Assembly: GCA_963837585.1 (NCBI GenBank)
Contig: CAWINX010000003.1
Coordinates: 3,098 to 67,097, forward strand
Origin: an uncultured Solirubrobacterales bacterium
Lineage (GTDB): Bacteria > Actinomycetota > Thermoleophilia > Solirubrobacterales > 70-9
Direction: 5' to 3'
DNA: 64,000 nt
Within the stretch, counting starts at the first letter, position 1. Every line of letters begins with the position of its first letter. Of this stretch, positions 2,090-63,366 are shown piece after piece. A program made the position numbers and the translations under genes. The notes under the pieces are model-generated. The model did not search any database. It was not told the origin of the DNA and saw only the letters and a list, made by a program, of their open reading frames with translations.

Positions 2090-3020
2090 ATGAAGAGCTT
2101 GGTGACAGGCGGCGCGGGGTTTATCGGCTCGAACTTGGTCGATGCCCTGCTGGCCCGCGGCGACGAGGTGGCGGTGGTCGACGACCTCTCGACCGGGCGG
2201 CTGGAAAACCTCGACGGAGCGCTCGCCGCCGGCGCGACGCTGGCCGAGCTCGACATCCGCGACGGGCGCGGCGCTGAGCGAGCTGGCGGCAGAGGCGCGG
2301 CCCGACGTCGTCTTCCACCTGGCGGCGCAGATCGACGTCCGCAAGTCGATCGCCGATCCGGCCTTCGACGCCTCGATCAATGTCGGCGGCACCGCCAACG
2401 TGCTGGAGGCGGCGCGGGGCGCGGGCGCGCGGCGCGTCGTCTTCGTCTCCACCGGGGGGGCGATCTACGGCGAGGGCGAGGGACAGGAGCTGCCGCTCGG
2501 CGAGGGCGCCCCGGTCGAGCCGCTCTCCGCCTACGGGCAGAGCAAGTTCGCCGCCGAGGGATACCTGGCGCTCTACGAGCGCCTCTACGGCCTCTCCAGC
2601 GTCAGCCTGCGACTCGGCAACGTCTACGGGCCGCGCCAGGACCCGCTCGGCGAAGCGGGGGTGATCGCGATCTTCTGCGGCAAGCTGCGCGCCGGCGAGC
2701 GGCCGACCGTGTTCGGCGACGGCCGCCAGACCCGCGACTACATATATGTGGGGGACGTGGTCGCCGCGGCGCTGGCCGCTTCGGGGTCGGAGGCGAGCGG
2801 GCCGATCAACATCGGCACGGGACGCGAGACCGACGTGTTGGAGCTGGCCCGACAGCTCGGCGAGCTGGAGGGCGTCGAGTTCGAGCCCGAGCTCGCCCCC
2901 GCCCGCACCGGCGAGGTGCAGCGGATCGCGATCGACCCGGGGCGCGCCGAGCGCGAGCTGGGCTGGCGCGCCGCGGTCGGCCTCGAAGAGGGCCTGCGGC
3001 TGACGCTCGCGTCGCTCTGA
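2090..3020 (+). CDS. NAD-dependent epimerase/dehydratase (UDP-glucose 4-epimerase-like); apparent frameshift near 2262-2272
   Basis: The N-terminus [36 protein letters not shown] (Rossmann GxxGxxG) lies in the frame of ORF 2090..3037. The remainder ([19 protein letters not shown] = Yxxx[12 protein letters not shown]) lies in ORF 2142..3020. The frames join at DIRDG|AALSEL. Confidence 0.8.
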
Positions 3021-3070
3021 CGCTCAGGTCGCTCTGACGCTCAGGTCGCTTTGACGCTCTGACGCTCGCG
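3000..3070. repeat. 17-bp tandem repeat CTGACGCTCAGGTCGCT, about 4 units, spanning the epimerase stop codon
   Basis: Read directly: units at 3000-3016, 3017-3033 and 3034-3050 (the last two identical), then partial units to 3070. The stop TGA at 3018-3020 lies inside unit 2. Confidence 0.85.
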
Positions 3071-3088
3071 GGGGGTGGTCGTCCCGCC

Positions 3089-3307
3089 CCGGTGTAACGC
3101 GTAAGTGGGGAAATAGCCCACCTACGCGTTACACCGTGGGTGAGGGCGGTCTGATCCCTTCTCGGTGTAACGCGTAAGTGGGCTGAGAGGCCGCCAACGC
3201 GTTGCACCGAGGGTGGAGAGTCGATCGTCAGTCCGGTGTAACGCGTGATCGTCAGCCCGGTGTAACGCGTAAGTGGGCTGAGAGGCCGCCAACGCGTTGC
3301 ACCGAGG
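3089..3307. repeat. Cluster of REP-like palindromic elements (core GGTGTAACGCGTAAGTGGG ... CCCACCTACGCGTTACACC)
   Basis: Hairpin copies at 3089-3136, 3162-3210 and 3257-3305, plus a half copy at 3233-3246. The 3163-3212 and 3258-3307 segments are identical. The cluster is intergenic. Small ORFs here (LTRYT / RCNA peptides) are repeat artefacts. Confidence 0.85.
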
Positions 3308-3419
3308 CAGGGGCGGCCCGCCCTCTAACCTTCCGGTCATGCCCGCCCAGGCCTATGCCGGCAAGGAGTGCGTCTGCCAACTGCGCAAGGGGATCTGCGA
3401 CCAGTCCTGCGTGCGCGAC

Positions 3420-4086
3420 ATGCTGGAGACGCCCTTCTACATCGCCTGCCTGAAGTTGAAGGGGCGGCGCTGCCTGGTGGTCGGGGGCGGCGACATCGGC
3501 CTGGAGAAGGTCGAGGGGCTGCTCGCCTGCGACGGCGAGGTGACGCTGATCGCGCCGACCGCCCACCCGGCGCTTGAGGAGCTGGCCGCCGAGGGCTCGA
3601 TCCAGTGGGAGAAGCGCCCCTACGAGGGGGCGGCCGACCTCGAGGGCATCTTCATGGTCGATCGCCGCGACCGACGACACCGAGGTCAACATCGGCGTCT
3701 ACGACGACGCCGAGCGGCGGGCGATGCTGGTCAACGTCGTCGACGTCCCCCCTCTGTGCAACTTCATCCTGCCGGCGATCGTGCGCAGCGGCCCGTTGGC
3801 GATCGCGATCTCGACCGCCGGCGCCTCCCCCGCGCTGGCGAAGCGGATGAAGCGCGAGGTCGCCGAGCTGTTCGGCGAGGAGTACGCGCGGCTGGCGGTC
3901 GTCCTCAACGACGCCCGCGGCTGGGCGAAGGGGACGCTGCCGACCTACCAGGACCGCAAGGAGTTCTTCGAGGGGATCGTCAACGGCGACCCCGACCCGG
4001 TCGAGCTGCTCCGCGAGGGCCGCGAGGTCGAAGTCCTGGCGCTGATCGAGGCCGCCAAAGAGCGCGCCGCGGCGGCGCTGGCCTAG
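3420..4086 (+). CDS. Siroheme synthase N-domain type protein (precorrin-2 dehydrogenase / sirohydrochlorin ferrochelatase, SirC/Met8-like); apparent frameshift near 3655-3662
   Basis: [35 protein letters not shown] (NAD-binding GGGxxG) is in ORF 3297..4184. It continues as [41 protein letters not shown]...[14 protein letters not shown] in ORF 3574..4086. Confidence 0.75.
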
Positions 4087-7088: not shown

Positions 7089-10000
7089 ATGTCCAAGACC
7101 GCCACCAGCTCCCCCCAGACCGGTCTGCAGGGCCTCTCGATAGAGCGGCGATTTAGCCGCGAAGGGACCCATCCCTTCGACGAGGTCGAGTGGGAGACCC
7201 GCGATGCGGTGATCGGCAACCCCGAGAGCCCGGCCTTCGAGCAGCGCGGGGTCGAGTTCCCGGTGGACTGGTCCCAGAACGCGACCAACATCGTCGCCCA
7301 GAAGTACTTCCGCGGCCAGCTCGGCTCGCCCGAGCGCGAGTCCTCGGTCAAACAGATGATCGGCCGGGTCGCGGGGACGATCTCGAACTGGGGGCGCGAG
7401 GGCGGCTACTTCGCCTCGCCCGAGGACGCCGACGCCTTCGAGGCCGAGCTGGCCTCGATCCTGCTCAACCAGAAGGCGGCCTTCAACTCGCCGGTCTGGT
7501 TCAACGTCGGCTTCGAGGAGACGCCGCAGTGCTCGGCCTGCCAGCCGTATCACGCGCTTGTCTCGACGCCCGAGGGCATGGTCCCGATCGGCGAGATGGT
7601 CGAGGGGGAGCAGATCGGCCGCGAGGTGTACGACGCGCGCGGCGTGACGCGAGTCGTCGCCGTCAAGGCCAACGGCCGCAAGCCGGTGATGCGGGTGCGG
7701 CTGCGCAACGGCGGCTTCGTCGAAGCCACGCCGGATCACGTCGTCAAGGCCGTCGCAGAGCGCCGCACCGAGCCACAGTGGCTGCGCGTCGACCAGCTCG
7801 CGCCGGGGATGCGGCTGCACCTGCACCCGCACCGGGCCAAGGTCGCCGACCGGACCCTAGTCGCGGCGGGCGGGCCCGCCTCGACGGAGCTTGACGGCAC
7901 CGACTACCTGGAGGCCCTCGACGAGACGACGCGCGTCGACCGCGCCGAGGCGGCGCTTGCCGGCTGGCTGCAGGCCGACGGCTTCGTCGGCCAGTACCAG
8001 GGCGGGACGAACAGCTCGCTGACGCATCGAGTTCCAGGTCGCGAACGACGAGGAGTACGCCTGGGTGATGGAGAACCTCGACATCGCTCTGCCCGACGTG
8101 CACCGCAAGGTGCGGGTGGCCGACACGCAGGAGGTCGAGGTGCGGCGGATCCGCCTCTACGGCGAGGTGCTTCGCGACTTCGTGGAGCGCTGGGAGCTCT
8201 CCCCGCGTGGGACGGAGATCCGCGTTCCCTCCCGGCTGTGGACGGCCACCCACGAGGAGATCTGCGCCTACCTGCGCAGCGTGTTCCAGGCGGACGGCTA
8301 CATGACCGTGCAGCGCAAGCACGACTACGAGAACGCCCGGATCGGCTTCGCCGTGATCGGCGAGCGGTGGACGGAGGACGTCCAGATGCTCCTCAACTCG
8401 GTCGGGATCTACTCCCGCCGCACCCGGAAGCACGAGAAGCGAGCGGATCGGCACGACATGCACGAGCTTTCGATCAACATCGGCTCGGAGCGAGCTCGCT
8501 TCGCGGAGCTGATCGGGTTCGTCGGCGAGGACAAGCAGCGCCGCCTGCTCGAGTCGCTGGAGCTGCGCAACCCGAAGCTCTGCCCGGACCTGCGCGAGGA
8601 GGAGATCGTCGCGATCGAGGAGCTCGGCGAGCAGGAGGTCTACGACATCCAGACCGAGTCGGGCGAGTACCTGAGCAACAACATCGCGGTCCACAACTGC
8701 TTCATCCTCAGCGTCGAGGACAACATGGACTCGATCCTCGACTGGAACACCAAAGAGGGCAAGATCTTCCGCGGCGGCTCCGGCTCGGGGATCAACCTCT
8801 CCAACATCCGCGGCTCGATGGAGCCGCTGAAGAAGGGCGGCACGGCGAGCGGCCCGGTCAGCTTCATGCGCGGCGCCGACTCCTGGGCGGGGACGATCAA
8901 GTCGGGCGGCAAGACGCGCCGCGCCGCGAAGATGGTCGTGCTCGACGTCGACCACCCGGACGTCGAGCACTTCATCTGGTGCAAGGCCAAAGAGGAGGAG
9001 AAGGCGGGGGCGCTGCGCGACGCCGGCTTCGACATGTCGATCGACGGCGAGGGCTTCACCTCGATCCAGTACCAGAACGCCAACAACTCGGTGCGGGTGA
9101 CCGACGAGTTCATGGAGGCGGTCGAGGCCGGCGGCGAGTGGGACCTGACCGCGCGGACCACCGGCGAGGCGGTGAAGACGCTCGACGCGCGCGACCTGAT
9201 GAACCAGATCTCCGACGCCGCCTGGCGCTGCGCCGATCCCGGCGTCCAGTACGACACGACGATCAACCGCTGGCACACCTGCCCGGAGTCGGGGCGGATC
9301 AACGCCTCCAACCCGTGCTCCGAGTACATGCACGTCGACGACTCGGCCTGCAACCTCGCCTCGATCAACCTGATGAAGTTCCGCCGCAAGGACGGCTCCT
9401 TCGACGCCGCGGAGTTCGAGCACGCGGTCGACATCGTCTTCCTCGCCCAGGAGATCGTGGTCGGCTGCTCCAGCTACCCGACCGAGGAGATCGGCGTCAA
9501 CGCCAACGCCTTCCGCCAGCTCGGGCTCGGCTACGCCAACCTCGGCGCGCTGCTGATGTCCGACGGCCTGCCGTATGACTCCGACGAGGGGCGCAACGTG
9601 GCGGCGGCGATCACCGCGCTGATGACCGGGCGCGCCTACCGCCAGTCGGCGTTGATCGCGGCCGGGGCGACCGGGCCCTACGCCGAGTACGAGCGCAACC
9701 GCGAGGCCCACAACGGGGTGATGCGGATGCACCGCGACGCCTCCCATGACATCGACTCGACCGGGATCAAGGGCGACCTGCTGGAGGCGGCGCAGCGCTC
9801 CTGGGACGAGGCGGTCGAGCTGGGCGAGGAGCACGGCTATCGCAACGCGCAGGCGACGGTGCTGGCGCCGACCGGGACGATCAGCTTCCTGATGGACTGC
9901 GACACGACCGGGATCGAGCCCGACTTCTCCCTGGTCAAGTTCAAGGAGCTGGTCGGCGGCGGGCAGATGACGATCGTCAACCGCTCGGTGCCGCTGGCGC

Positions 10001-51507: not shown

Positions 51508-52770
51508 ATGGACTTCAAGCCCAGCCCCCAGGTCGAGACCCTGCGCGAGCGGATCCTCGACTTCATGGACGCGCAGATCTACCCGCAGGAGCGGGAGATC
51601 ATGGAGGGGCTCGACGCCGAGGTCGCGACGGGCGTTCCCTACCCGAAGATCCTGGTCGAGATCCGCGAGCGCGCCAAGTCGGAGGGGCTCTGGAACCTCT
51701 TCATGCCCGACGAGCGCTACGGCCCGGGCCTGACCAACTGGGAGTACGGGCTGCTCTGCGAGGAGATGGGCCGCAGCCCGGCCGCCGCGCCGATGGCTTT
51801 CAACTGTGCGGCGCCGGACACCGGCAACATGGAGATCCTCGCCGAGCACGGCACCGACGAGCAGAGGGAGCGCTGGCTGGAGCCGCTGCTGGACGGGAAG
51901 ATCCGCAGCTGCTTCTCGATGACCGAGCCGGATGTGTCGGGCTCGGACCCGACCCTGCTGCAGGCGCGGGCCGTGCGCGACGGCGACGACTGGGTGATCA
52001 ACGGCCACAAGTGGTTCACCTCGGGCGCGGTCGGCGCCGACCTGGCGATCGCGATGGTCGTCACCGACCCCGACGCCCACCCCTACGCGCGCGCCTCGAT
52101 GATCTGCGTGCCGACCGACAACCCCGGCTTCAACCTGGTGCGGCCGATCTCGGTGATGGGACACGACAAGGGTCCCGGCCACTGCGAGATCCGCTACGAG
52201 GACTGCCGCGTCCCGGCGGCCAACCTGCTCGGCGGCGAGGGGCAGGGCTTCGTCGTCGCCCAGGACCGGCTCGGCCCGGGGCGCATCCACCACTGCATGC
52301 GGGCGATCGGCACCGCGGAGCGGGCGCTGGAGATGATGTGCCGCCGCGCCAACGAGCGCCACGCCTTCGGCGGCCCGCTGGGCGAGAAGCAGTTCGTCCA
52401 GGAGGCGATCGCCGCCTCGCGGATGGAGATCGACCAGGCCCGCCTGCTGACCCTCTACGCCGCCTGGAAGATGGACACCGAGGGCAAGCGCGCCGCCCGC
52501 CAGTCGATCTCGGCGATCAAGGTCGTCGCCGCCAACATCGTCATGGACGTGCTCGACCGGGCGATCCAGGTCCACGGCAGCCTCGGGATGACCGACGACA
52601 CCCCGCTCGCCGCCCTCTGGCGCTTCAGCCGCATGCTGCGCCTCGCCGACGGCCCCGACGAGGTCCACAAGATGGTCCTCGCCCGCCGCGAGCTGAACCG
52701 CTGGGCGAAGCGCGCCGAGGCGGAGACAGCCGGTGAGCTGACCTCAAAGCACGCCCCGCGCCAAATCTAG
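51508..52770 (+). CDS. Acyl-CoA dehydrogenase
   Basis: Intact 420-aa ORF containing CFSMTEPDVSGSDPT, WVINGHKWFTSGA and QVHGSLGMTDDTPLAALWR. Its last 11 codons are repeated at 54215-54247. Confidence 0.9.
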   Translation: MDFKPSPQVETLRERILDFMDAQIYPQEREIMEGLDAEVATGVPYPKILVEIRERAKSEGLWNLFMPDERYGPGLTNWEYGLLCEEMGRSPAAAPMAFNCAAPDTGNMEILAEHGTDEQRERWLEPLLDGKIRSCFSMTEPDVSGSDPTLLQARAVRDGDDWVINGHKWFTSGAVGADLAIAMVVTDPDAHPYARASMICVPTDNPGFNLVRPISVMGHDKGPGHCEIRYEDCRVPAANLLGGEGQGFVVAQDRLGPGRIHHCMRAIGTAERALEMMCRRANERHAFGGPLGEKQFVQEAIAASRMEIDQARLLTLYAAWKMDTEGKRAARQSISAIKVVAANIVMDVLDRAIQVHGSLGMTDDTPLAALWRFSRMLRLADGPDEVHKMVLARRELNRWAKRAEAETAGELTSKHAPRQI

Positions 52771-52775
52771 GTTGA

Positions 52776-52791
52776 TTATCAGATTTGATAA
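52776..52791. promoter_or_regulatory. AT-rich inverted repeat TTATCA-gatt-TGATAA upstream of the TA-like cassette
   Basis: Read directly in the 30-nt AT-rich gap between the ACAD stop (52770) and the GTG at 52801. Candidate operator. Confidence 0.35.
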
Positions 52792-52800
52792 TTTGCAGTT

Positions 52801-53403
52801 GTGGAGCGCCTTAGCCCGCAGCTCTCTGCCGTCTTGGAATCGGAGTCGCGCGACCATGACCATGTCGTCGCCGACCTGGCTGATCGCTTCGAGATGGTTC
52901 TCGAGGCAGTCGAGAACGACGCAGGCTGGGCAACCAACAGGGTCACTCCCGGGAAGGTGATCCTCGGAAACTTGGACGGGATCGAGGCGGGGGTCCGCCA
53001 GATGATCCGCAAGATCCCGCTGGAGGTCACGACGGTCACCCTCCCATCAGGGAGCGAGGTCACCGTTCCGACGGAAGAAGAGACTCTCCGCATCAAGGCG
53101 TTCCTGGTCGTGCGACGCAACCAGACTCGCGACTACCTGGATCTCGCCGCGCTGTCCGAGCACCTCGGCTTCGACCACGCCGGCGGCGTCCTGGCGCGGA
53201 TCGACGACTACTACGCCGACCAGCACGGAGAGGGCGACGGGATCGCATCGCAACTCGTCCGCCAACTCTCCGACCCCCAACCGGCGGACCGGTCGGTGAT
53301 CGACCAACTCTCCTCCTACCGGCGCCTGCGCAAACGCTGGAGCGATTGGAACGCCGTGACCGAGGTTCTGGGAGATGTCGCCGCACGGATGGTGACGCCA
53401 TGA
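52801..53403 (+). CDS. Hypothetical protein resembling the C-terminal part of AbiEii-type nucleotidyltransferase toxins
   Basis: 200-aa ORF. ETLRIKAFLVVRRNQTRDYLDLAALSEHLG resembles the AbiEii helical region. I could not find an N-terminal GSx-D NTase motif. Its stop overlaps the next ATG (ATGA). Confidence 0.4.
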   Translation: MERLSPQLSAVLESESRDHDHVVADLADRFEMVLEAVENDAGWATNRVTPGKVILGNLDGIEAGVRQMIRKIPLEVTTVTLPSGSEVTVPTEEETLRIKAFLVVRRNQTRDYLDLAALSEHLGFDHAGGVLARIDDYYADQHGEGDGIASQLVRQLSDPQPADRSVIDQLSSYRRLRKRWSDWNAVTEVLGDVAARMVTP

Positions 53404-53955
53404 GCACGCTCGCCTTTCGCAACGTCGACGCTTCGCCGGACGACCCGGTTTCCGAGTGGCCGCTGGAGGCGATCCAAACCGCGCTCGAACGTGGTGGCCT
53501 CTCGCACTGGCGGCGGCTGGGGGAGGCGATCCAAGCCGAGCCGTGGGGCCCGGTCGCGCGCCGGGTCGAAGAGGTGCTCACCTACAGCAGGCCCTACGGT
53601 GTCGCGCCGGCAATGGAGCGAACGATCACGCGGGCGCGCAAGGCAGCCGAAGCATCGGAGCGCAAGGCGGTAGCGGCCGAGGTCGACGACCTCGTACGGG
53701 CATCGGGCCTCTCCCGAGCCGAGTTCGCCTCCCGCATCGGCACCTCGGCCTCCCGCCTTTCCACCTACGCCACGGGCAAGGTCACCCCTTCAGCGGCGCT
53801 GTTGACGCGAATGCGCCGAACTACGGGACGTCGAGAAAGCCGGCCGAGCGCTGCTTGCCATGCCGCCTCCCCCCGGCGAGGGCCCGGAGCCCGATTGGGA
53901 AGAGCAGAAGCGCGAGATGCTCGACGCCCCGGCGCGCAAGTGGCCCGGCGCGTGA
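53400..53955 (+). CDS. Protein with C-terminal XRE-type HTH (putative antitoxin/regulator); apparent frameshift near 53808-53815
   Basis: MSTLAFRNVDASPDDPVSEWPLEAIQTALERGGLSHWRRL...SGLSRAEFASRIGTSASRLSTYATGKVTPSAALLTR is in ORF 53346..53999. It then shifts to AELRDVEKAGRALLAMPPPPGEGPEPDWEEQKREMLDAPARKWPGA. The stop forms a GTGA overlap with the PIN remnant. Confidence 0.6.
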
Positions 53956-54190
53956 GGCCGCTTCCTCTACGACACCTCGATCTTCATCTACGCCCTTGAG
54001 GGAGAACATCCCTACAGGGAGCCCTGTCGCGAGATCGATGCGCAGGGCCCGTGACGCCGTCTTCGCCGCCCTCGCGCTCAATCGCGGAATTGACGCCATC
54101 CTCGCCACAGACCGCGCCTTCGACGGAATCGAAGGCCTGGAGCGAATCGACCCGGCGGACGAGCAGACAGTCTCCACCTTGATCGGCTGA
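53952..54190 (+). pseudogene. Degenerate PIN-domain (VapC-like) remnant
   Basis: The N-terminal LYDTSIFIYALEGEHPYREPCREI (one frame) and the C-terminal AVFAALALNRGIDAILATDRAFDGIEGLERIDP (ORF 53456..54190 frame) total about 80 aa. This is too short for a PIN domain, and it has at least two frame breaks. Confidence 0.6.
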
Positions 54191-54252
54191 CGCAACTGAA
54201 GGCAAGGCAGGGGTTTGACTTCGAAGCACGCCCCGCGGACAGTCTGAACATG

Positions 54253-54286
54253 CCAGAGGGGGCGGCCAATTGGCCGCCCCCTCTGG
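54253..54286. terminator. Perfect 34-nt palindrome between convergent genes
   Basis: CCAGAGGGGGCGGCCAA|TTGGCCGCCCCCTCTGG, read directly. No strong U-tract. Confidence 0.45.
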
Positions 54287-54315
54287 CAATAACGCCGTCC
54301 TGAGCTTGAGCCTGC

Positions 54316-55033
54316 CTAGCCGACGGCCGTGCCGATCACATCCAGCTCGGCGCCGGTGGCGGTTACACCGCTGCCGGAGCTGCAGCTGCCACCCGCCAAA
54401 TAGACCGAGAAGGTGTGATTTGTGGCCGAGATGGGCGCGATGCTCGACATCGGAGCCGCAGGAGGCGTGAAGGGTCCGAAGTCCACACGCCTCGTCACCT
54501 CACCCGAGCCTTTGTCGATCAGGTAACCGTATCCGACGATCTCCGGCGGAGCCGGCGAGCCGGGGTTCGCCGCGTCCTTGAGCAAGTAGGCCAGCGCCGA
54601 CCGCGGCTGCACGCAGCCGGCGTCGAACTTGACGTCGAACGCCGCCAGATACTGGTCGTCACGACCAGTCGGTTGAGTGTAGGTCGCGTTGTTGAACGGA
54701 TAGACCTGGCCTCCGGTGAACGGAACCGAGGAGTTGCCCCGCAACTTCTCGACCAACTGGGAAAACACGGTGGTCGGAGCGTTGATCTTGGCGCCGGTGA
54801 CTGCCTTGTTCTTGATCTTCGCGGTGGTGATCGCGTTTCTCTTGATCTTCGCGGTGGTGATCGCGTTCCGCTTGATCTTGGCCGTGGTCACCGCGTTCTT
54901 CTTCAGCTGCTTGGTGCCGACGCTGTTCTTGCCGAGGCCGGCCGCAATCGCGGTCGCGCCGCCGAGGACGAGGAACACAGCGAGGGACGACATCACGTTC
55001 GCGATACGTGAGTCGCTTGCGAATCTGCTTCAC
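54316..55033 (-). CDS. Secreted protein with N-terminal 10-aa tandem repeats (KNAVTTAKIK x4); apparent 1-nt insertion near 55002-55006
   Basis: MKQIRKRLTY is in ORF 54659..55033. It is followed by VMSSLAVFLVLGGATAIAAGLGKNSVGTKQLKKNAVTTAKIKRNAITTAKIKRNAITTAKIKNKAVTGAKI in ORF 54316..54996. The 30-bp DNA repeats lie at about 54790-54910. Confidence 0.65.
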
Positions 55034-55163: not shown

Positions 55164-56216
55164 TCAGCCGCGGCGCTCGGCCTCGTCGGCCGCCTCGGCG
55201 AGGCGCTCGACCAGGCGCGCAAACGCCTGGATTCCCGGGTCGACCTCGCCGTACTGGCCGGCCGCGTAGCGCGCGTAGACGCCCTCGAGGATGATCGCCA
55301 GCTTCCAGTAGCCGAGGGCGACGAAGAAGTCGAGCTCGGAGAGGTCGCGGCCGGAGCGCTCCGCGTAGCGGGCCTTCAGCTCCTCGCGGGTCGGGAAGCC
55401 CGGCGCCAGGTTGGCGGGCTGGCCGAGCGCGATCGTCTCCTCGCCGCGCTCGGGCCAGTAGACCATCAGCAGGCCGACGTCGGCGAGCGGGTCGCCGAGC
55501 GTGCAGAGCTCCCAGTCGACCACCGCGGCGACCTCGCCGCTCGGCGCCAGGATCATGTTGTCGAGCCGGTAGTCGCCGTGGACGATCGTCGCCGGGCCCT
55601 GTTCGGGGATGCGGGCGGCGAGTCGCTCGTGCACCTCGTCGACCGCCGCCAGCTCGCGGGTCTTCGACTTCTCCCACTGCCCGTGCCAACGGTGCAGCTG
55701 GCGAGCGACGTAGTCCTCCTTGCGGCCGAGGTCGCCGAGGCCAACCGCGTCGGGGTCGACCGCATGGATCGCGACCAGGGTGTCGGCGACGCGCTCGCCG
55801 ATCGCCCGCCGGTCGGCCTCGTCGGGGAAGGCATCGGCCTCGGCAAGCCCGCGCAGGATCGGCCCCTCGACGAACTCCATCGCGTAGAAGGGAGCGCCGT
55901 TGACGCTCTCGTCCTCGCAGAGCCCGACCACCGGAGCGACGGGCACCTCGGTGCCCCCCAGCGCCGAGACGACCTTGTATTCGCGCCCCATGTCGTGGGC
56001 GGAGCCGAGTCGCTTGCCCAGCGGCGGCCGGCGCAGCGCCCAGCGGCGGCCGGCGGCGTCGGTCACCCCGTAGGTGAGGTTCGAGTGGCCGCCGGCGATC
56101 CGCTCGAAGGAGAGGGGCAGAGCGACCTCGGGGACGTGCTCGGCGAACCACCCCTCGACCCCCGCCCGGTCGATCCCCTCCGGGGCGTCGGCGGTGCGTG
56201 TAGCCTCGTCCTCCAT
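55164..56216 (-). CDS. Aminoglycoside-phosphotransferase-fold kinase (APH/ACAD10-11-associated type)
   Basis: ATG at 56216 within ORF 55164..57158. GGHSNLTYGV, IVHGDYRLDNMIL (catalytic loop) and VVDWELCTLGDPLAD. Confidence 0.85.
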   Translation of the reverse strand: MEDEATRTADAPEGIDRAGVEGWFAEHVPEVALPLSFERIAGGHSNLTYGVTDAAGRRWALRRPPLGKRLGSAHDMGREYKVVSALGGTEVPVAPVVGLCEDESVNGAPFYAMEFVEGPILRGLAEADAFPDEADRRAIGERVADTLVAIHAVDPDAVGLGDLGRKEDYVARQLHRWHGQWEKSKTRELAAVDEVHERLAARIPEQGPATIVHGDYRLDNMILAPSGEVAAVVDWELCTLGDPLADVGLLMVYWPERGEETIALGQPANLAPGFPTREELKARYAERSGRDLSELDFFVALGYWKLAIILEGVYARYAAGQYGEVDPGIQAFARLVERLAEAADEAERRG

Positions 56217-57947: not shown

Positions 57948-58017
57948 ATCAACAGAGCGCCGAGGGCTCGCGAACAGCTTCTCCCAGCGAGTGAGATGTG
58001 TCGGCCTTGAGCGTGTT

Positions 58018-61000
58018 TCAGGGACGCATGTGTTCGTCACCGATATCTGCGCGATCTAATTCGACAAACGCCAAACGTGCGTTTCGAACCCAATCCTTGA
58101 GACGTGCCTCGTCGATTGTGCCATCATCGCGACTGCCAGGGAGCCCTCTCCAGTGGTTCAGTACCCACCAGGCATGTTGAGCAAGTGCCTCGTCGTGTTT
58201 GCCCAGCTGCCGGCGTGGTTGCATTCTTGCCGCGATAAACCCGTGATACCAGATCAACAAAAATGCCAGGATCGTTAGCCAGTAGGGAATAGAGCGCCCG
58301 AGGACGACGACGACTGTGTTCCAAGAGACGGAAGAAAGCAAACTCGTAACGAGCGAGTTTGTCTGCTGAGTACTTTTTAGTTTCAAGGAAGTCGAGCAAG
58401 ACTCCGATTTCATAGCCCGGAGACTGCGAGGGCGCATCGTCCTGATCTGAAACCAGCGCGGCATCGAGAACCTGCTCGACTAGCTCGATCTCGATGGCCG
58501 CAGGTTTTTCCTTCGTTCCATGAAGGACTGCCGTCAGCATGTCAACGGCTGACCAGGGACGATCGTGACGAAGTAGCTCCTGAGTCGCGTACTCGGCATC
58601 TTGCTCCTTTACGCGCCAGGGGTTCATGGACGACCAGTAGGCATCCGAAAGGTCCGGCTCCTGTCCTCTGATGGCGTCCCATAGCTCACGGGTTGCCGGG
58701 GCGGCCAGCGCCAAGGCATTACGCCGCCTGAGACTTTTTGCCTCGGGCCGTTCCATAATTTCAAGCAGCCAGGGAACCCCGTGCTCGCTGAGTTTGCGTG
58801 AAGCCCAACCCTGAGCAACGTTGCTAAGTGCGGCTTTGTTTGAATCGAGCCACCCCATTAGGTTCCCGGTCAGTTCGTCAGGAGCCACCTCGCCGACAAC
58901 CCAACCCAGCTGGTTCGGTGCGGTACTTCGTTCGGCTAACGCCTGCAAGCCATCAAGGGAGGCAGAATCGAGCGTTTCCTTGACGGCCTGGACGCGCAAT
59001 TCAGCTAGCTTCTGGTCATATCCGTCGTCATTCAGGTCCACATCTGGAAGGTCTGGGTGCCAGTCGAACAGGTAGCCGAAGCGAGCAACGTCGGATTTTG
59101 GCTCAAGTTGATCGGCGATGGCTTGCATGCGCGACAATGGTTGCTCGCCCATTGACCAGTCAGCGGATGGGAACTTGCGATGGCGCGCGATCTCTCGATC
59201 AATTCGCTCCCATAGCTCGAGTCGATCTGCGGGCGTAAAGGCTGCTGAATCGACAAACTGTTCCAGGGACTCAAGCAAACGCTCACGCTCGGCAGGTGGC
59301 AGGGGTCCGAAGAACTCGCTGAGCTTTGCCCAGCGTTGGGAGTCGGTACCGGCTAGTTGGATTGCTAGTCCAACGAGCTGGCTAATGAATCCAACCCAGT
59401 CGGCCGCCAAGACGTTACGGTTTTCCGGCTTCCAATCGTGGAACTTTGGTGAGGAAGGCGGAGACGCAATGGCATGGTTGCTTGGCCAAAGCTCAAGTAC
59501 CAACTCCCATGCAACTTCCGGTTGCTGGCTGCCGATTTGCTCAAGCGCCTGAACCTTGGCGTCCATTGAGGCTGATGTATGTCGAATCCAACCCACCAGC
59601 ACGGACGCCAGGCTCGCCAAGGGGCGGTTAGAGAGTTGGCCTCCGGGATCAATTGCGGAAAGCCTTGCTAGAGCGCGCGTGGCATCGAATAGGTAGTCTG
59701 GCGACCAGCAAAGAACCTCAAGTGCCCACAACAGCCCGGTATGCGGCGATGAACTGAATAGCGCCGAGGTCTGCTCACCGTCTTGAAAGGTAATTCTCAG
59801 TACCGGTTGGTCACGATCTAGATCAACATGGACAGCATCCAGAAACTCCTCAGGTGCGGCCTCCGCAAGAAGTCGGAGCTCCTCTGAGAGAGAGCACCAA
59901 GTCCGTCCGCTCGAATCATCATTTGCACGGCTGAGAATCTCCCGCACAGCGCGGCGTGCGTGGTCGACACCACTCGCCCCGTCTGCGAGCGTCGCAGCAC
60001 CGGAGGCTGACCCGAGCAGCGCAATCCCTTGAGCCATTCCCTGTCGTAGGACCGACGAATGCTTGCGGACCGCGCCTCGCAGGCTGGCCATCGGTCGATG
60101 ATTCGGCTCCAGTTCGAGCTTCGGGTCTGCTTCCAGCAGAACCTCGGTGACTGCTTCGTACCACCGGGCCAGATCGGTAGCGGTTAGGGCGTCTCGAAGG
60201 AGGAGGAAGGCCTCGTCGGCCGACGTCAGGTGCCACTGCGAACCTGGATGGACAAAAGGTGGATCATCCATCGTCAGCCAATGCAGCAGGTCACGCTCAA
60301 TTGTGGGCCATGACTTGTCCACCACCCGACTCACGATGTCTAGGTCATTCTCGTTTGTCTCCCATGCTCCAACTAGCACGAGAGGCGCGAAGGTCGATGC
60401 GTCCGGAGGCTGCGACCACGCGGGGCGCGCGAAAGCCGGATCGCGTGCCAGCTTACGAATCAGAGACGGCATGCTTCGGCGCGCCTGGGCAGCCAGACGG
60501 TATGCGGCATCCGAGTCCGCGCCAGCGGCATCGAGAACGGACTCGAGCGCTTTCGTCGCAGCCTCTCTGTCTGGGCGCGGGAGGTTTATGTGCTCCCCCT
60601 GCACAACTTGCTCCCAGCGAAGCGGCACGACAACGTAATGTCCGTGTTCGATCGCAGAGGAGAAGTTAGCCCCGTCGAACATCGGCAAGAGCGTCATTCG
60701 CCCGGGTTGCACCACCACGCGATCCCAAACCTCTTCCGATGAGACAACGAGGGGCGGCTGAGGACTGTGGCCCTCTCGACCCATCATCTCGATCGTCGCG
60801 CAAACGAACGCTATGGCATCGTCGCGCCATGCCGCCTGGACAGCGACAACTTCGGGGTGTTCTCGAAGGAATTTTGCCAGCCGATCACTCTCGTACGTTC
60901 GCCCTGCAAGGAAGAGGCTCCCCGGAAGTTCGGGCTCAGTCCGGGCCTGGAAGCGCTGCCACCACTGCTCCAGCGTTTCGACATCTCGTGGCCGGCGCCC

Positions 61001-61297
61001 CAGTTGCTCCGAGATCCACTGATGTACGGCCGGTGTCTGTTGGAGCCAGCCCCGTAGCTGCGTGCGTCCAATCTCGGGGTCAATCGAGCCGCGTTCCTCG
61101 CCAAGCCCGGATGCCACGCGTCGCCTCGTTGGTCCGAAGCAAGCGCATCCGCAACGCAGGAACCGGGAACCGGGAACTCGCGCCGACTGGAGGATGCCCT
61201 CTCTCGCCCAGTTGCGAACCGTGTTCTCATGCACTCCTAGGCGTCGCGCGGTCTCGCGGACATTAAGGAAATCGCCGCCGGTTTCGTCTACAATCAT
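58018..61297 (-). CDS. Large (about 1,090 aa) protein with N-terminal MerR/excisionase-type HTH and an uncharacterised helical body; apparent frameshift near 58200-58240
   Basis: ORF 58124..61297 (1057 aa) starts MIVDETGGDFLNVRETARRLGVHENTVRNWAREGILQSARVPGSRFLR (HTH_17-like). The plausible C-terminus (...DEALAQHAWWVLNHWRGLPGSRDDGTIDEARLKDWVRNARLAFVELDRADIGDEHMRP) continues in ORF 58018..58464. I saw no Walker A, nuclease, SIR2 or TIR motif. GC is visibly lower than in the flanks. Confidence 0.7.
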
Positions 61298-61304
61298 GCT
61301 ATTA

Positions 61305-61312
61305 TGATATCA
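61305..61312. promoter_or_regulatory. TGATATCA palindrome in the AT-rich divergent intergenic region
   Basis: It lies in the 61-nt AT-rich gap between the large HTH gene start (61297) and ORF 61359. Candidate autoregulatory operator. Position-based only. Confidence 0.25.
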
Positions 61313-61358
61313 GAGAATGTGGACTTTGTGATAACCTTAGGGATATGGCGGTTGAACG

Positions 61359-61556
61359 ATGAGTTCCTCAAGCAAGGGCCTGGGCTTGCGCCGAGAAGAG
61401 CGTGAACTTTTCTTCTGGACTGCTCGTCAGGTGCTCAAGCTCGTTACCTGGACGGCTTTGACGATCTACTTCGTGCTGTCGCTGGTCCACGGAAAACCCG
61501 CCGGAATGCGCGAGCTGCTGGATTGCACCTCGCCGATCGTTGCGCTGTCTCGCTAG
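61359..61556 (+). CDS. Hypothetical 65-aa protein with one TM helix
   Basis: ORF MSSSSKGLGLRREERELFFWTARQVLKLVTWTALTIYFVLSLVHGKPAGMRELLDC..., divergent from the large HTH gene. The SD is weak and coding status is uncertain. Confidence 0.3.
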   Translation: MSSSSKGLGLRREERELFFWTARQVLKLVTWTALTIYFVLSLVHGKPAGMRELLDCTSPIVALSR

Positions 61557-61878
61557 GACTGGTCGAGCCGAGTCAGTCGCTCCTTGATCTCAGGGTTTCG
61601 AAAACTGACACATCAGGCCCCGCAGAATTCGAACCTGTGACCTGTTCGTAGACCGATCCGGGAATCGAGCCGCTTTCGACACAGCCAAGCGACATCTTTC
61701 TGAAGGCTCGTAACTTGCGGGACGGGTGCCCGTAACTCGGGCGCTTGTGGGGCCGGTCGGGGGTGTCATCCGGGTGCGGCGGTCTCTTTTTCGCACTGAT
61801 CGACTCAGCGAGAGACGTCCAACTTAAAGGCGAAAAAGGCAGCACTCGGAGGACACCCCCGACCGGCCCTTCAACCAC
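61557..61878 (-). other. Structured non-coding tract with degenerate tRNA-like T-loop motifs and a ~102-nt nested stem-loop
   Basis: The minus strand contains GGTTCGAAT (about 61627-61635) and CTCGATTCC (about 61659-61667), but neither sits in a foldable cloverleaf. At 61758-61859, GGGGGTGTC/GACACCCCC (9 bp) encloses CTTTTTCGC/GCGAAAAAG (9 bp). Confidence 0.4.
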
Positions 61879-63366
61879 TCAACTCTTGGCGATCTCCAGG
61901 CGGATCTCTTTGCCTTTGAGCTTGGTTCCGTCCAAGAACTCGACCGCGTGCTCGGCGCGGTCGGGGGCGACCTCGACGAAGGAGAAGCGGTGCAGGACTC
62001 GGACGTCGTGGATCGCCTCCTCGGGGATGACCGCCCCCTCGCGCAGCGCCCAGCGCAGGTCCTCTTCGGTGATTCCGCTGCGCTCGCCGCGGTTGACGAA
62101 GAGCTTGACGCTCTTGCTCTCCTCGCCATCGCTCTTGTCCTTGTCGCTTCCGCCCTCTTCGGCCTCTGTCGACTCGGAAGGCTTGGACCGCTCGGGGCGC
62201 TCGCGGCGGCGCGGGCGCGGGGCGTGCTCGAGGCGCTCCTCGGGGCTCTCCCACTCGCCGATCGACGTTTTCACGTCGCGCTCGATGCGGCCGATCTCGT
62301 CGCGCTGGGCCGGGGTGACGAGGGTGATCGCGCGGCCGGTGCGGCCGACCCGGCCGGTGCGGCCGATCCGGTGGACGTAGACCTCGGAGGAGTCGGGGAC
62401 GTCGAAGTTGATCACGTGGGTGACGTGCTCGATGTCGAGGCCGCGCGCGGCGATGTCGGTCGCCACCAGCAGCCGCACCCGGTGGTCCTTGAAGGCGATC
62501 ATCACCCCGTCGCGCGAGCCCTGGCTCATGTCGCCGTGCAGCGCCTTGACGTCGAGCCCTTTGTCCTTCAGCGTCTTCTCCAGGCGGGAGGCGCCGATCT
62601 TGGTGCGGGTGAAGATGATCGCCTGCTCGGGCTCCTCCACCTTCAGCAGCTCGACCAGCCGCGCCGCCTTGTCCTTTGCCGGGACCTCGATGAAAGCCTG
62701 GGCGATCGCGTCGACGGTGAGCTTTTTCGGGGTGATTTTGATCGTCACCGGGTCGTACATGTAGCCCTCGGCGAGCTTCTTGATCGGCGGCGGCATCGTC
62801 GCCGAGAAGAGCGCCGTCTGGCGGCCGCTCGGGCACATCCGCAGGATCTTCTCGACGTCCTCGATGAAGCCGAGGTCGAGCATCTCATCGGCCTCGTCGA
62901 GGACGATGTAGCGCGCCGCGGTGAGGACGAGGGAGCGGCGCGACATCAGGTCCATCATCCGCCCGACCGTGGCGACGACCACGTGGGCGCCGGCCCGCAG
63001 CTGTGCCTGCTGGGATTTGATCGGCGCGCCGCCGAAGACGGCGACGATCTCGACGTCGAGGTGCTCGGCGTAGGCGCGCAGCGCCTGGGTCACCTGGATG
63101 CAGAGCTCCCGGGTGGGGGTGAGGACGACCGCCTGCACCTCGTCGTTGTCGGGGTCGAGGTACTGGAGCAGCGGCAGGCCGAAGGCGGCCGTCTTGCCGG
63201 TGCCGGTCTGCGCCTGGCCGATCACGTCGTGGCCGCCGAGCAGCTCCGGGATCGCCTGCTCCTGGATCGGGGTCGGCTCGTTGAAGCCGAGCTCGTCGAT
63301 CGCCTGCTGAATGCCCGGCGAGAGGCCGAGGTCCTTGAAGGTAATGGCAGTCTCCTCGGGGCTCAT
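61879..63366 (-). CDS. DEAD-box ATP-dependent RNA helicase with DbpA-type C-terminal RNA-binding domain
   Basis: Intact 495-aa ORF with a Q motif (FKDLGLSPGIQQAIDELGFNEPTPIQ), AQTGTGKT, DEAD (VLDEADEM), SAT and HRIGRTGRVG. The C-terminus reads KLFVNRGERSGITEEDL... Confidence 0.92.
   Translation of the reverse strand: MSPEETAITFKDLGLSPGIQQAIDELGFNEPTPIQEQAIPELLGGHDVIGQAQTGTGKTAAFGLPLLQYLDPDNDEVQAVVLTPTRELCIQVTQALRAYAEHLDVEIVAVFGGAPIKSQQAQLRAGAHVVVATVGRMMDLMSRRSLVLTAARYIVLDEADEMLDLGFIEDVEKILRMCPSGRQTALFSATMPPPIKKLAEGYMYDPVTIKITPKKLTVDAIAQAFIEVPAKDKAARLVELLKVEEPEQAIIFTRTKIGASRLEKTLKDKGLDVKALHGDMSQGSRDGVMIAFKDHRVRLLVATDIAARGLDIEHVTHVINFDVPDSSEVYVHRIGRTGRVGRTGRAITLVTPAQRDEIGRIERDVKTSIGEWESPEERLEHAPRPRRRERPERSKPSESTEAEEGGSDKDKSDGEESKSVKLFVNRGERSGITEEDLRWALREGAVIPEEAIHDVRVLHRFSFVEVAPDRAEHAVEFLDGTKLKGKEIRLEIAKS

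Follow-up and report, generated by a model that had tools for sequence, protein, structure and literature searches.

What does it mean when the end of a housekeeping gene is found a second time downstream, with toxin-antitoxin-like genes between the two copies? This question is raised by a stretch of 64,000 nucleotides (nt) from an uncultured Solirubrobacterales bacterium (contig CAWINX010000003.1, positions 3,098 to 67,097; hereafter the window), in which the last 33 nt of a gene for an acyl-CoA dehydrogenase (ACAD) recur in imperfect form. A first-pass annotation of the window had read this arrangement as the trace of an element that integrates site-specifically into the 3' end of a gene and brings along a replacement end, as tRNA-targeting islands do. 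We compared the window locus with ~59 related loci (designated by L-numbers), in which an ACAD gene faces a gene for an APH-type kinase. With moderate confidence, we favor a reading in two joined parts, namely that the ACAD-APH gap is a lineage-wide recombination hotspot without mobile elements, and that the repeat is the footprint of displacement of the ACAD 3' end by ordinary recombination at this hotspot, not of a self-integrating element.

The ACAD gene itself (51508-52770, forward strand) is intact and codes for a protein of 420 aa with matches to the Pfam models Acyl-CoA_dh_N, Acyl-CoA_dh_M and Acyl-CoA_dh_1. Its open reading frame (ORF) ends in ...GELTSKHAPRQI and a stop; the Acyl-CoA_dh_1 domain stops at residue 395 of 420, with a tail of 10-20 residues beyond it. 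The present gene end, copy 1 (52738-52770, forward strand; CTGACCTCAAAGCACGCCCCGCGCCAAATCTAG), encodes LTSKHAPRQI followed by the stop, and copy 2, the orphan (54211-54247, with the 33-nt copy at 54215-54247, forward strand; TTGACTTCGAAGCACGCCCCGCGGACAGTCTGA), encodes LTSKHAPRTV followed by a stop. Both copies were recovered by reading the sequence and by repeat search, which aligned a 22-nt pair (52739-52760 and 54216-54237) with 20 of 22 positions identical (91%). The degenerate core has exactly two matches in the window at up to three mismatches, as against a chance expectation of 0.02, and two or more matches were seen in none of 100 shuffles of the window. A profile of the ACAD 3' ends of the relatives covers 54211-54247 and no further, and when we extended the window orphan leftward with a 217-column ACAD 3'-end profile there was no homology past 54211. 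The imperfect repeat reported in the first-pass annotation is thus real, as is the in-frame TGA that it had placed just upstream of copy 2 (54197-54199); its proposed search for further copies of the 22-bp core, run within the window, returned none beyond these two.

The differences between the copies bear on their history. At the window locus 9 of 33 nt differ while LTSKHAPR is kept (8 of 10 residues), and the codon changes comprise five synonymous ones (the stop-to-stop change included) and two non-synonymous ones; the corresponding figures in L017 are five and zero. Taking together the ungapped pairs from six loci, we counted 25 synonymous versus 13 non-synonymous changes (66% synonymous). 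Random change is expected to yield ~21% synonymous changes, and the observed share was reached in 0 of 5000 simulations; even in a coarse model with constraint on the functional copy alone and drift in the other one, P = 0.001. Therefore, the two ends diverged mostly as real gene ends in different genomes. This supports the view that the downstream copy would be the former ACAD end beside its old hairpin, and the present end a replacement of separate origin, which would have come in with cassette DNA.

The hairpin in question is a perfect 38-nt palindrome (19 + 19 nt, 100% complementarity) detected by inverted-repeat search at 54251-54288; the perfect palindrome noted earlier after copy 2 does exist, though with wider limits than the 34 nt at 54253-54286 given then. 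It occurs once in the window and folds with -47.3 kcal/mol (z = -8.0). It has no T-run, and a simple promoter and terminator scan calls nothing. Lying between the former ACAD end and the next, convergent gene, the hairpin probably acts as a terminator in both directions. The sole Rfam match, to a miRNA, was dismissed as meaningless. The next gene (54316-55033, reverse strand), delimited by its ORF and by locus comparison, belongs to a lineage-specific family without a Pfam match, fam0, whose usual place is convergent to ACAD in one to five tandem copies; 54316-54996 represents one such copy. Beyond it, the APH-type kinase gene (55164-56216, reverse strand; traced by tblastn across the loci and by Pfam APH matches of its homologues) is conserved and bounds the hotspot on its far side. 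Hairpins of the same kind stand 3' of the ACAD stop or of an orphan in L003, L006, L011, L012, L021, L095, L100, L105, L108, L109 and L164.

ACAD and APH are convergent neighbors across the order (50+ loci), and the gap between them ranges from 77 nt to >6 kb in the ~59 loci. Distant relatives have a gap of ~80-100 nt, as do L023 and L025, where it is empty; it spans 0.7 kb to >6 kb in the clade whose ACAD ends in (K/R)H.(P/A/R)R.. before the stop. Most loci hold only fam0 copies in the gap; in a minority, the ACAD stop is directly followed by toxin-antitoxin modules of several types (AbiEii-like with a helix-turn-helix (HTH) protein, ribbon-helix-helix (RHH)/PIN, Phd/PIN, MNT/HepT and others), the order and number of which vary. 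The window resembles Solirubrobacterales metagenome-assembled genomes. The best ACAD relatives reach 91% protein identity, and an exact look-up of the window ACAD protein found no identical record. In the cassette-free L006, L095, L100, L105, L108, L109 and L164, a GC-rich hairpin comes next after the ACAD stop, with the stop of fam0 behind it, and the same order of hairpin and fam0 stop is found 3' of the window orphan. The alignment with related ACAD loci that had been suggested earlier thus yields the expected order at the level of the clade, in seven loci, with the same-species site lying outside a comparison that reaches at most 93.4% nucleotide identity. Together with the synonymous bias, it supports the idea of a replacement end. 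Between species, the ACAD region from -140 to -70 is 92-98% identical and positions 1100-1200 are 87-98% identical, as against 54-75% for the hypervariable last ~65 nt.

The window orphan is one of a series. We found 13 orphan ACAD 3' fragments in 12 of the ~59 loci, spread over four ACAD clades, with lengths of 22-189 nt and differing left ends; three of them are truncated on the right. The window orphan measures 22-37 nt, and those of L024, L003, L008, L012, L026, L017 and L053 measure 40, 55, 66, 73, 83, 94 and ~95 nt, respectively. Longer ones are present in L007 (~110-130 nt, with the last ~24 nt gone), L011 (~150 nt, with indels) and L087 (189 nt), and L086 has two fragments of 31 and ~50 nt, both right-truncated. 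What lies between the repeats changes from locus to locus; in L012 and L008 it includes ordinary fam0 genes, not toxin-antitoxin modules. Even for one and the same type of RHH/PIN cassette the right neighbor varies: L053 has an orphan of 95 nt there and the window one of 37 nt, L005 and L076 have a hairpin, and L007 has a mid-gene HTH fragment. In the window, L003, L007 and L087, older modules have been cut by newer ones. The orphans of L003, L008, L011, L024, L026 and L087 have lost their stop or frame, as expected for relics. Orphans as a whole are met in assemblies of short reads as well as of long reads, and their blastn E-values go down to 1.6e-71.

The L087 orphan has a peculiarity of its own. 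When its two copies (3724-3912 and 8329-8517) are compared, the orphan's right-hand 48 nt do not differ from the gene end, a part that is hypervariable between species, while the left 140 nt show 18 mismatches, including some in the conserved DEVHKM codons. Such a mosaic suggests that the copies have undergone gene conversion or have crossed over repeatedly.

Seen against this background, the insert in the window is a composite, in which a cassette A (AbiEii-like/HTH) has taken the place of the left half of an older cassette B (RHH/PIN), rather than the single three-gene toxin-antitoxin-like cassette described earlier. Directly after the ACAD stop and ahead of the AbiEii-like gene lies an AT-rich inverted repeat (52771-52798, forward strand) with the arms ATTATC (52775-52780) and GATAAT (52787-52792) separated by 6 nt. 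The AT-rich sequence of the first-pass annotation is thus present, and it may act as an operator; the same ATTATC-N6-8-GATAAT pattern precedes homologous cassettes in L009, L029, L081, L086, L087 and L103. The presumed toxin of cassette A is an AbiEii-like nucleotidyltransferase (52801-53403, forward strand), assigned by a weak Pfam match, by alignment to homologues and by the NCBI names of these homologues (AbiEii/AbiGii family). The Pfam AbiEii match is below the cut-off (E=1.7e-3; 18.8 bits versus 22.5). Relative to its 229-aa homologues, the protein lacks 26 residues through an in-frame deletion, among them the conserved ...LVGG(T/S)AAILYADHR segment with the GG(T/S)A motif, and it is probably inactive. 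The module had no match in NCBIfam or PADLOC, and the AbiEii-like protein had no homologue in the phage collection. Its partner is not AbiEi, the antitoxin that precedes AbiEii in type IV AbiE systems, but the downstream XRE-type HTH gene (53400-53999, forward strand; Pfam HTH_31/HTH_3), which is native up to ~53825, where homology ends at ...RMRRTT; from there the ORF runs out of frame through the remains of cassette B.

These remains begin, in another frame than the HTH ORF, with the C-terminal fragment of an RHH antitoxin (~53824-53955, forward strand; ...AGRALLAMPPPPGEGPEPDWEEQKREMLDAPARKWPGA and a stop, also given as ...LLAMPPPPGEGPEPDWEEQKREMLDAPARKWPGA and a stop), recognized in translation and by alignment to the intact RHH proteins of L005, L076, L053 and L026. 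They continue with the remnant of a PIN (VapC-like) toxin gene (53956-54190, forward strand), which, aligned to its intact homologue, shows an internal deletion of ~200 nt (~66 residues) near 54039-54048 plus a frame shift. The right junction of cassette A falls inside the RHH gene of cassette B, destroying the antitoxin, and the promoter and N-terminal half of this gene would have been overwritten when cassette A arrived. The window fragments have no Pfam match; the intact RHH/PIN homologues in the relatives match Pfam PIN and RHH, as do the RHH genes of L005 for the latter model. With ~66 PIN residues deleted and the antitoxin missing its RHH half, the window remnants are not an intact type II VapBC pair. 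Both toxin genes are thus deleted in part, and the insert is a decaying pile of addiction modules.

Apart from these loci, the AbiEii-like and HTH pair is also found in the Pseudonocardia megaplasmid pBCI1-2 (L168, NZ_CP012185.1 479847-480942), at 61% identity and with no ACAD nearby. The order of the toxin-like gene first and the HTH gene second is the reverse of the classical AbiEi/AbiEii arrangement, which suggests a distinct, unstudied type of module.

How could such a structure have formed? The mechanism that we infer would start from an ancestral order of ACAD ending in LTSKHAPRTV, hairpin and convergent fam0, as judged from the orphan and the relatives. DNA from a related Solirubrobacterales genome, carrying the 3' portion of an ACAD gene along with an RHH/PIN module (cassette B), would then have arrived. 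On the left, it would have been joined by a homologous crossover inside the highly conserved part of the ACAD 3' region (-140 to -70), and on the right by non-homologous joining inside or just before the tail of the resident gene. Such an event would leave the gene with a complete foreign end and strand the old tail with its hairpin downstream. A second event of like kind would have brought another ACAD end together with the AbiEii-like/HTH pair (cassette A). Depending on the point of right-hand joining, the scar would differ: a join in the ACAD tail would give an orphan, one in a resident cassette a truncation, and one further downstream no scar at all. Housekeeping recombination and end-joining would suffice for these steps, with no need for a dedicated integrase. 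The route may have been homology-facilitated illegitimate recombination or, in its place, a RecA-mediated crossover with DNA that already carried an ACAD fragment. The latter variant would also explain the L087 mosaic, in which the right 48 nt of the orphan match the gene and the left 140 nt differ at 18 positions.

The foremost rival is site-specific integration, in which cis-mobilizable att-flanked micro-elements of the CIME type, or the rump of an eroded island, would have used an att site in the ACAD tail. A tyrosine or serine recombinase would have acted in trans and each element would have carried its own replacement end, as with phage 21 and e14 at icd or ICESt3 at fda. As in an island, the insert stands between direct repeats, one of which serves as the target gene's functional 3' end. 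Moreover, in the window and in L053 the two copies are identical over 14 nt at the same position of the tail (AAGCACGCC followed by C or G), between diverged arms, and the cassette ends lie tight at stop codons. AbiEii-like homologues at no less than 81% identity adjoin ACAD in three of three look-ups, which suggests site specificity; this adjacency may also mean that the genes have stayed at the locus for a long time and were exchanged through its flanks. What is missing is a recombinase gene by an att site and a fixed attachment core. We detected no recombinase gene in the insert, where the ORFs between the repeats are the AbiEii-like, HTH and RHH/PIN genes or remnants, so that the earlier statement of an insert lacking an integrase stands. 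Nor is a recognized recombinase found in any of the ~59 related arrays or among the window ORFs tested (30-64 kb, housekeeping genes; the ORFs of 1-30 kb were not scanned), and the window has no tRNA gene; the suggestion of a cognate integrase elsewhere thus drew a blank in all that was covered. The 'core', in turn, corresponds to those codons of the tail (K/R-H-A) that are best conserved in every species, and its identity need not mark a crossover. Because the orphans vary in length and boundaries (even within one cassette type, and with some truncated on the right), the cargo is non-mobile in some loci (the ordinary fam0 genes of L012 and L008) and resident modules are overwritten, a fixed attachment site does not fit. 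With unrelated cargo and a composite insert added to this, the comparison with tRNA-targeting islands is not supported, and we regard site-specific integration as unlikely. A related and more doubtful idea is that the ACAD tail serves as a dedicated docking site, an integron-like platform for toxin-antitoxin micro-cassettes that lack an integrase and are moved by an unlinked or unrecognized recombinase. Two findings would agree with it, namely the tight cassette borders at stop codons and the place of the AbiEii-like/HTH pair beside ACAD in every look-up in this lineage.

The repeat might also be of local origin, with a staggered break or a replication error having copied the last tens of nt of ACAD when foreign DNA was captured; this would amount to a long target-site duplication, the downstream copy of which has drifted since. 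Such a process requires no donor of an ACAD end, and end-joining repair is common in Actinobacteria. The pairs of L017 (94 nt, six differences) and L003 (52-55 nt, ~93-94% identical) indeed resemble recent duplicates. Against it stand the 66% share of synonymous changes, where drift would give 21%, the retention of most residues despite the nucleotide differences at the window locus, and the L053 orphan, which is nearer to the tails of other lineages than to its own gene. We therefore consider local duplication improbable, about on a par with the docking site. Least credible of all is that the similarity arose by chance, or that the assembly wrongly joined strain variants where the ACAD 3' end is conserved. 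The window repeat is admittedly short, and many of the related loci come from metagenome bins, including indel-prone long-read assemblies; against this, 0.02 chance matches are expected, the orphan sits where the relatives have their ACAD end, just before the hairpin and the fam0 stop, and orphans appear in short-read and long-read assemblies alike.

Displacement of the 3' end by ordinary recombination, which we prefer, has difficulties of its own. No donor or recipient pair and no intermediate was observed, and hence no recombination breakpoint in ACAD is demonstrated; window-wise identity to the relatives resolves none either, the 3' region being uniformly conserved. The 14 nt of perfect identity between diverged arms in the window repeat resemble an att core, and a 64-kb window leaves room for an integrase elsewhere in the genome. 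In more than 10 junctions, the orphan starts 0-30 nt from the stop of the last cassette gene, which weighs against random illegitimate end-points, since random points are not expected there; the one explanation that we can offer is that later deletions, limited by genes under selection, would have trimmed the junctions. The 24 loci from Joint Genome Institute (JGI) short-read metagenomes yielded no orphans, only short minus-strand noise, making the frequency uneven between data sets. The model also leaves the arrival of the very first cassette unexplained. As for raised homologous recombination in the flanking core genes, the signs are indirect, in that gene ends look foreign and the relationships of the AbiEii-like genes are at odds with those of ACAD: the window cassette is closest to that of L087 (85.5%), versus 74% for L053, the sister in terms of ACAD.

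Comparable structures are known from arrays of polymorphic toxins. For effector/immunity arrays of type VI secretion systems (T6SS), a proposed mechanism is illegitimate recombination facilitated by homology (PMC5361080), and that paper cites Jackson et al. 2009 for C-terminal displacement and the orphan 3' regions of rhs. The ACAD locus shares with the arrays of rhs, contact-dependent inhibition (CDI) and T6SS an anchor gene whose 5' part is constant and whose 3' end varies, incoming modules that supply a new 3' end together with cargo, and old ends and modules displaced downstream as orphans in the same orientation, with older modules truncated; the mechanism proposed is likewise anchored in the conserved upstream part. 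It differs in that the displaced end is the short, non-toxic tail of a metabolic enzyme and not a toxin domain, that the cargo consists of autonomous toxin-antitoxin operons without a cognate immunity gene, and that there is no evident selection to diversify the ACAD end itself. The structure thus works like a 3'-end displacement array but, for want of a toxin domain in the displaced end, stands outside the family.

A second parallel is offered by hotspots of gene transfer, many of which are devoid of mobile elements and have core genes at their flanks in which recombination is raised (PMC5635113); core defense hotspots (PMC10250203) served as a further system for comparison. As in hotspots free of mobile elements, the same core flanks (ACAD and APH) are kept across an order while the genes between them turn over rapidly, no integrase or transposase is present, and toxin-antitoxin or defense-like cargo is dominant. 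However, double crossovers in such hotspots are scarless, whereas about one-fifth of the ACAD loci keep a duplicated piece of one flank, which implies one-sided or imprecise events.

Prophages and integrative elements at gene ends provide a third comparison. Phage 21 and e14 insert in the 3' end of icd and supply a substitute end, and ICESt1/ICESt3 and CIMEs sit at fda. They resemble the ACAD locus in the direct repeat of a gene end, in a functional copy that is a replacement with mainly synonymous differences, and in the orphaned original downstream; unlike it, they possess or require a tyrosine recombinase and have a fixed attachment core, neither of which was found here. Integron arrays, finally, are similar in that small, mostly co-oriented cassettes, often toxin-antitoxin modules, stand in tandem downstream of a fixed point, and in some of the ACAD arrays (the window, L003) an intact module is nearest this point with remnants distal to it. 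In contrast to integrons, no intI lies beside the ACAD array (the upstream genes code for a sulfotransferase and a RibD_C protein), only occasional ACAD-derived fragments stand between cassettes, and no attC-like or common element was apparent at the cassette junctions that were read, a reading that did not include a dedicated attC search.

Several further features of these loci deserve mention. In one clade, a ~19-nt AATCCCAGATTGYC-like motif occurs in one to three repeats between the ACAD stop and the first cassette (L081 at 3960; L086 at 2740, 2762 and 2784; L003 at 3521; similar in L029, L007 and L014). With the patterns used, it is almost confined to that leader position in ~1 Mb of loci. 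We considered it as a general junction element between cassettes and rejected this, as it is restricted to the leaders of one clade and absent from the window locus. The MNT/HepT modules at 2897-3898 and 5273-6273 of L086 are 99.4% identical over 1002 nt and each is followed by a different ACAD fragment. This pair was likewise rejected as a case of recent cassette transposition, since the borders of identity fall inside coding sequences, and it looks like gene conversion between paralogous cassettes. The L053 array includes a 469-aa ORF (10876-12285, reverse strand), the start of which, judged by eye, is like that of a group II intron reverse transcriptase/maturase. The fam0 proteins (~200-290 aa) begin with K(Q)IRKRLTYANVMSSIAVFLVLGG, contain repeated KQLKKNAVT-like motifs and have no match in Pfam, NCBIfam or PADLOC; examples in related loci are at 7325-9752 of L006, 7324-10520 of L012 and 8220-12198 of L017. 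The reading frame of the window copy of fam0 is shifted near 55000, in its N-terminal part, by a genuine mutation or by an indel from sequencing.

Elsewhere in the window, positions 58000-62000 have a GC content of 57-61%, as opposed to ~70% in the remainder. They contain a 1061-aa ORF (58124-61309, reverse strand), flanked by a response-regulator gene and a DEAD-box helicase gene, the sole recognizable feature of which is an N-terminal HTH of the excisionase/MerR type (HTH_17, E=1.4e-6). This segment looks like a separate foreign insertion.

In practical terms the ACAD locus is of modest value, as a well-defined site at which gene gain driven by recombination can be tested with population genomics. 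It also holds a warning for annotators, as a short duplicated gene end alone is no evidence for an integrative element. The movement of toxin-antitoxin modules without transposases or integrases is poorly documented, and this locus keeps a series of its natural footprints in uncultured soil Actinomycetota. These footprints comprise orphan ends, modules that were overwritten and toxins that were crippled, and they point to displacement anchored by homology at the conserved end of a gene, extending a pattern of polymorphic-toxin loci to the gene of a housekeeping enzyme.

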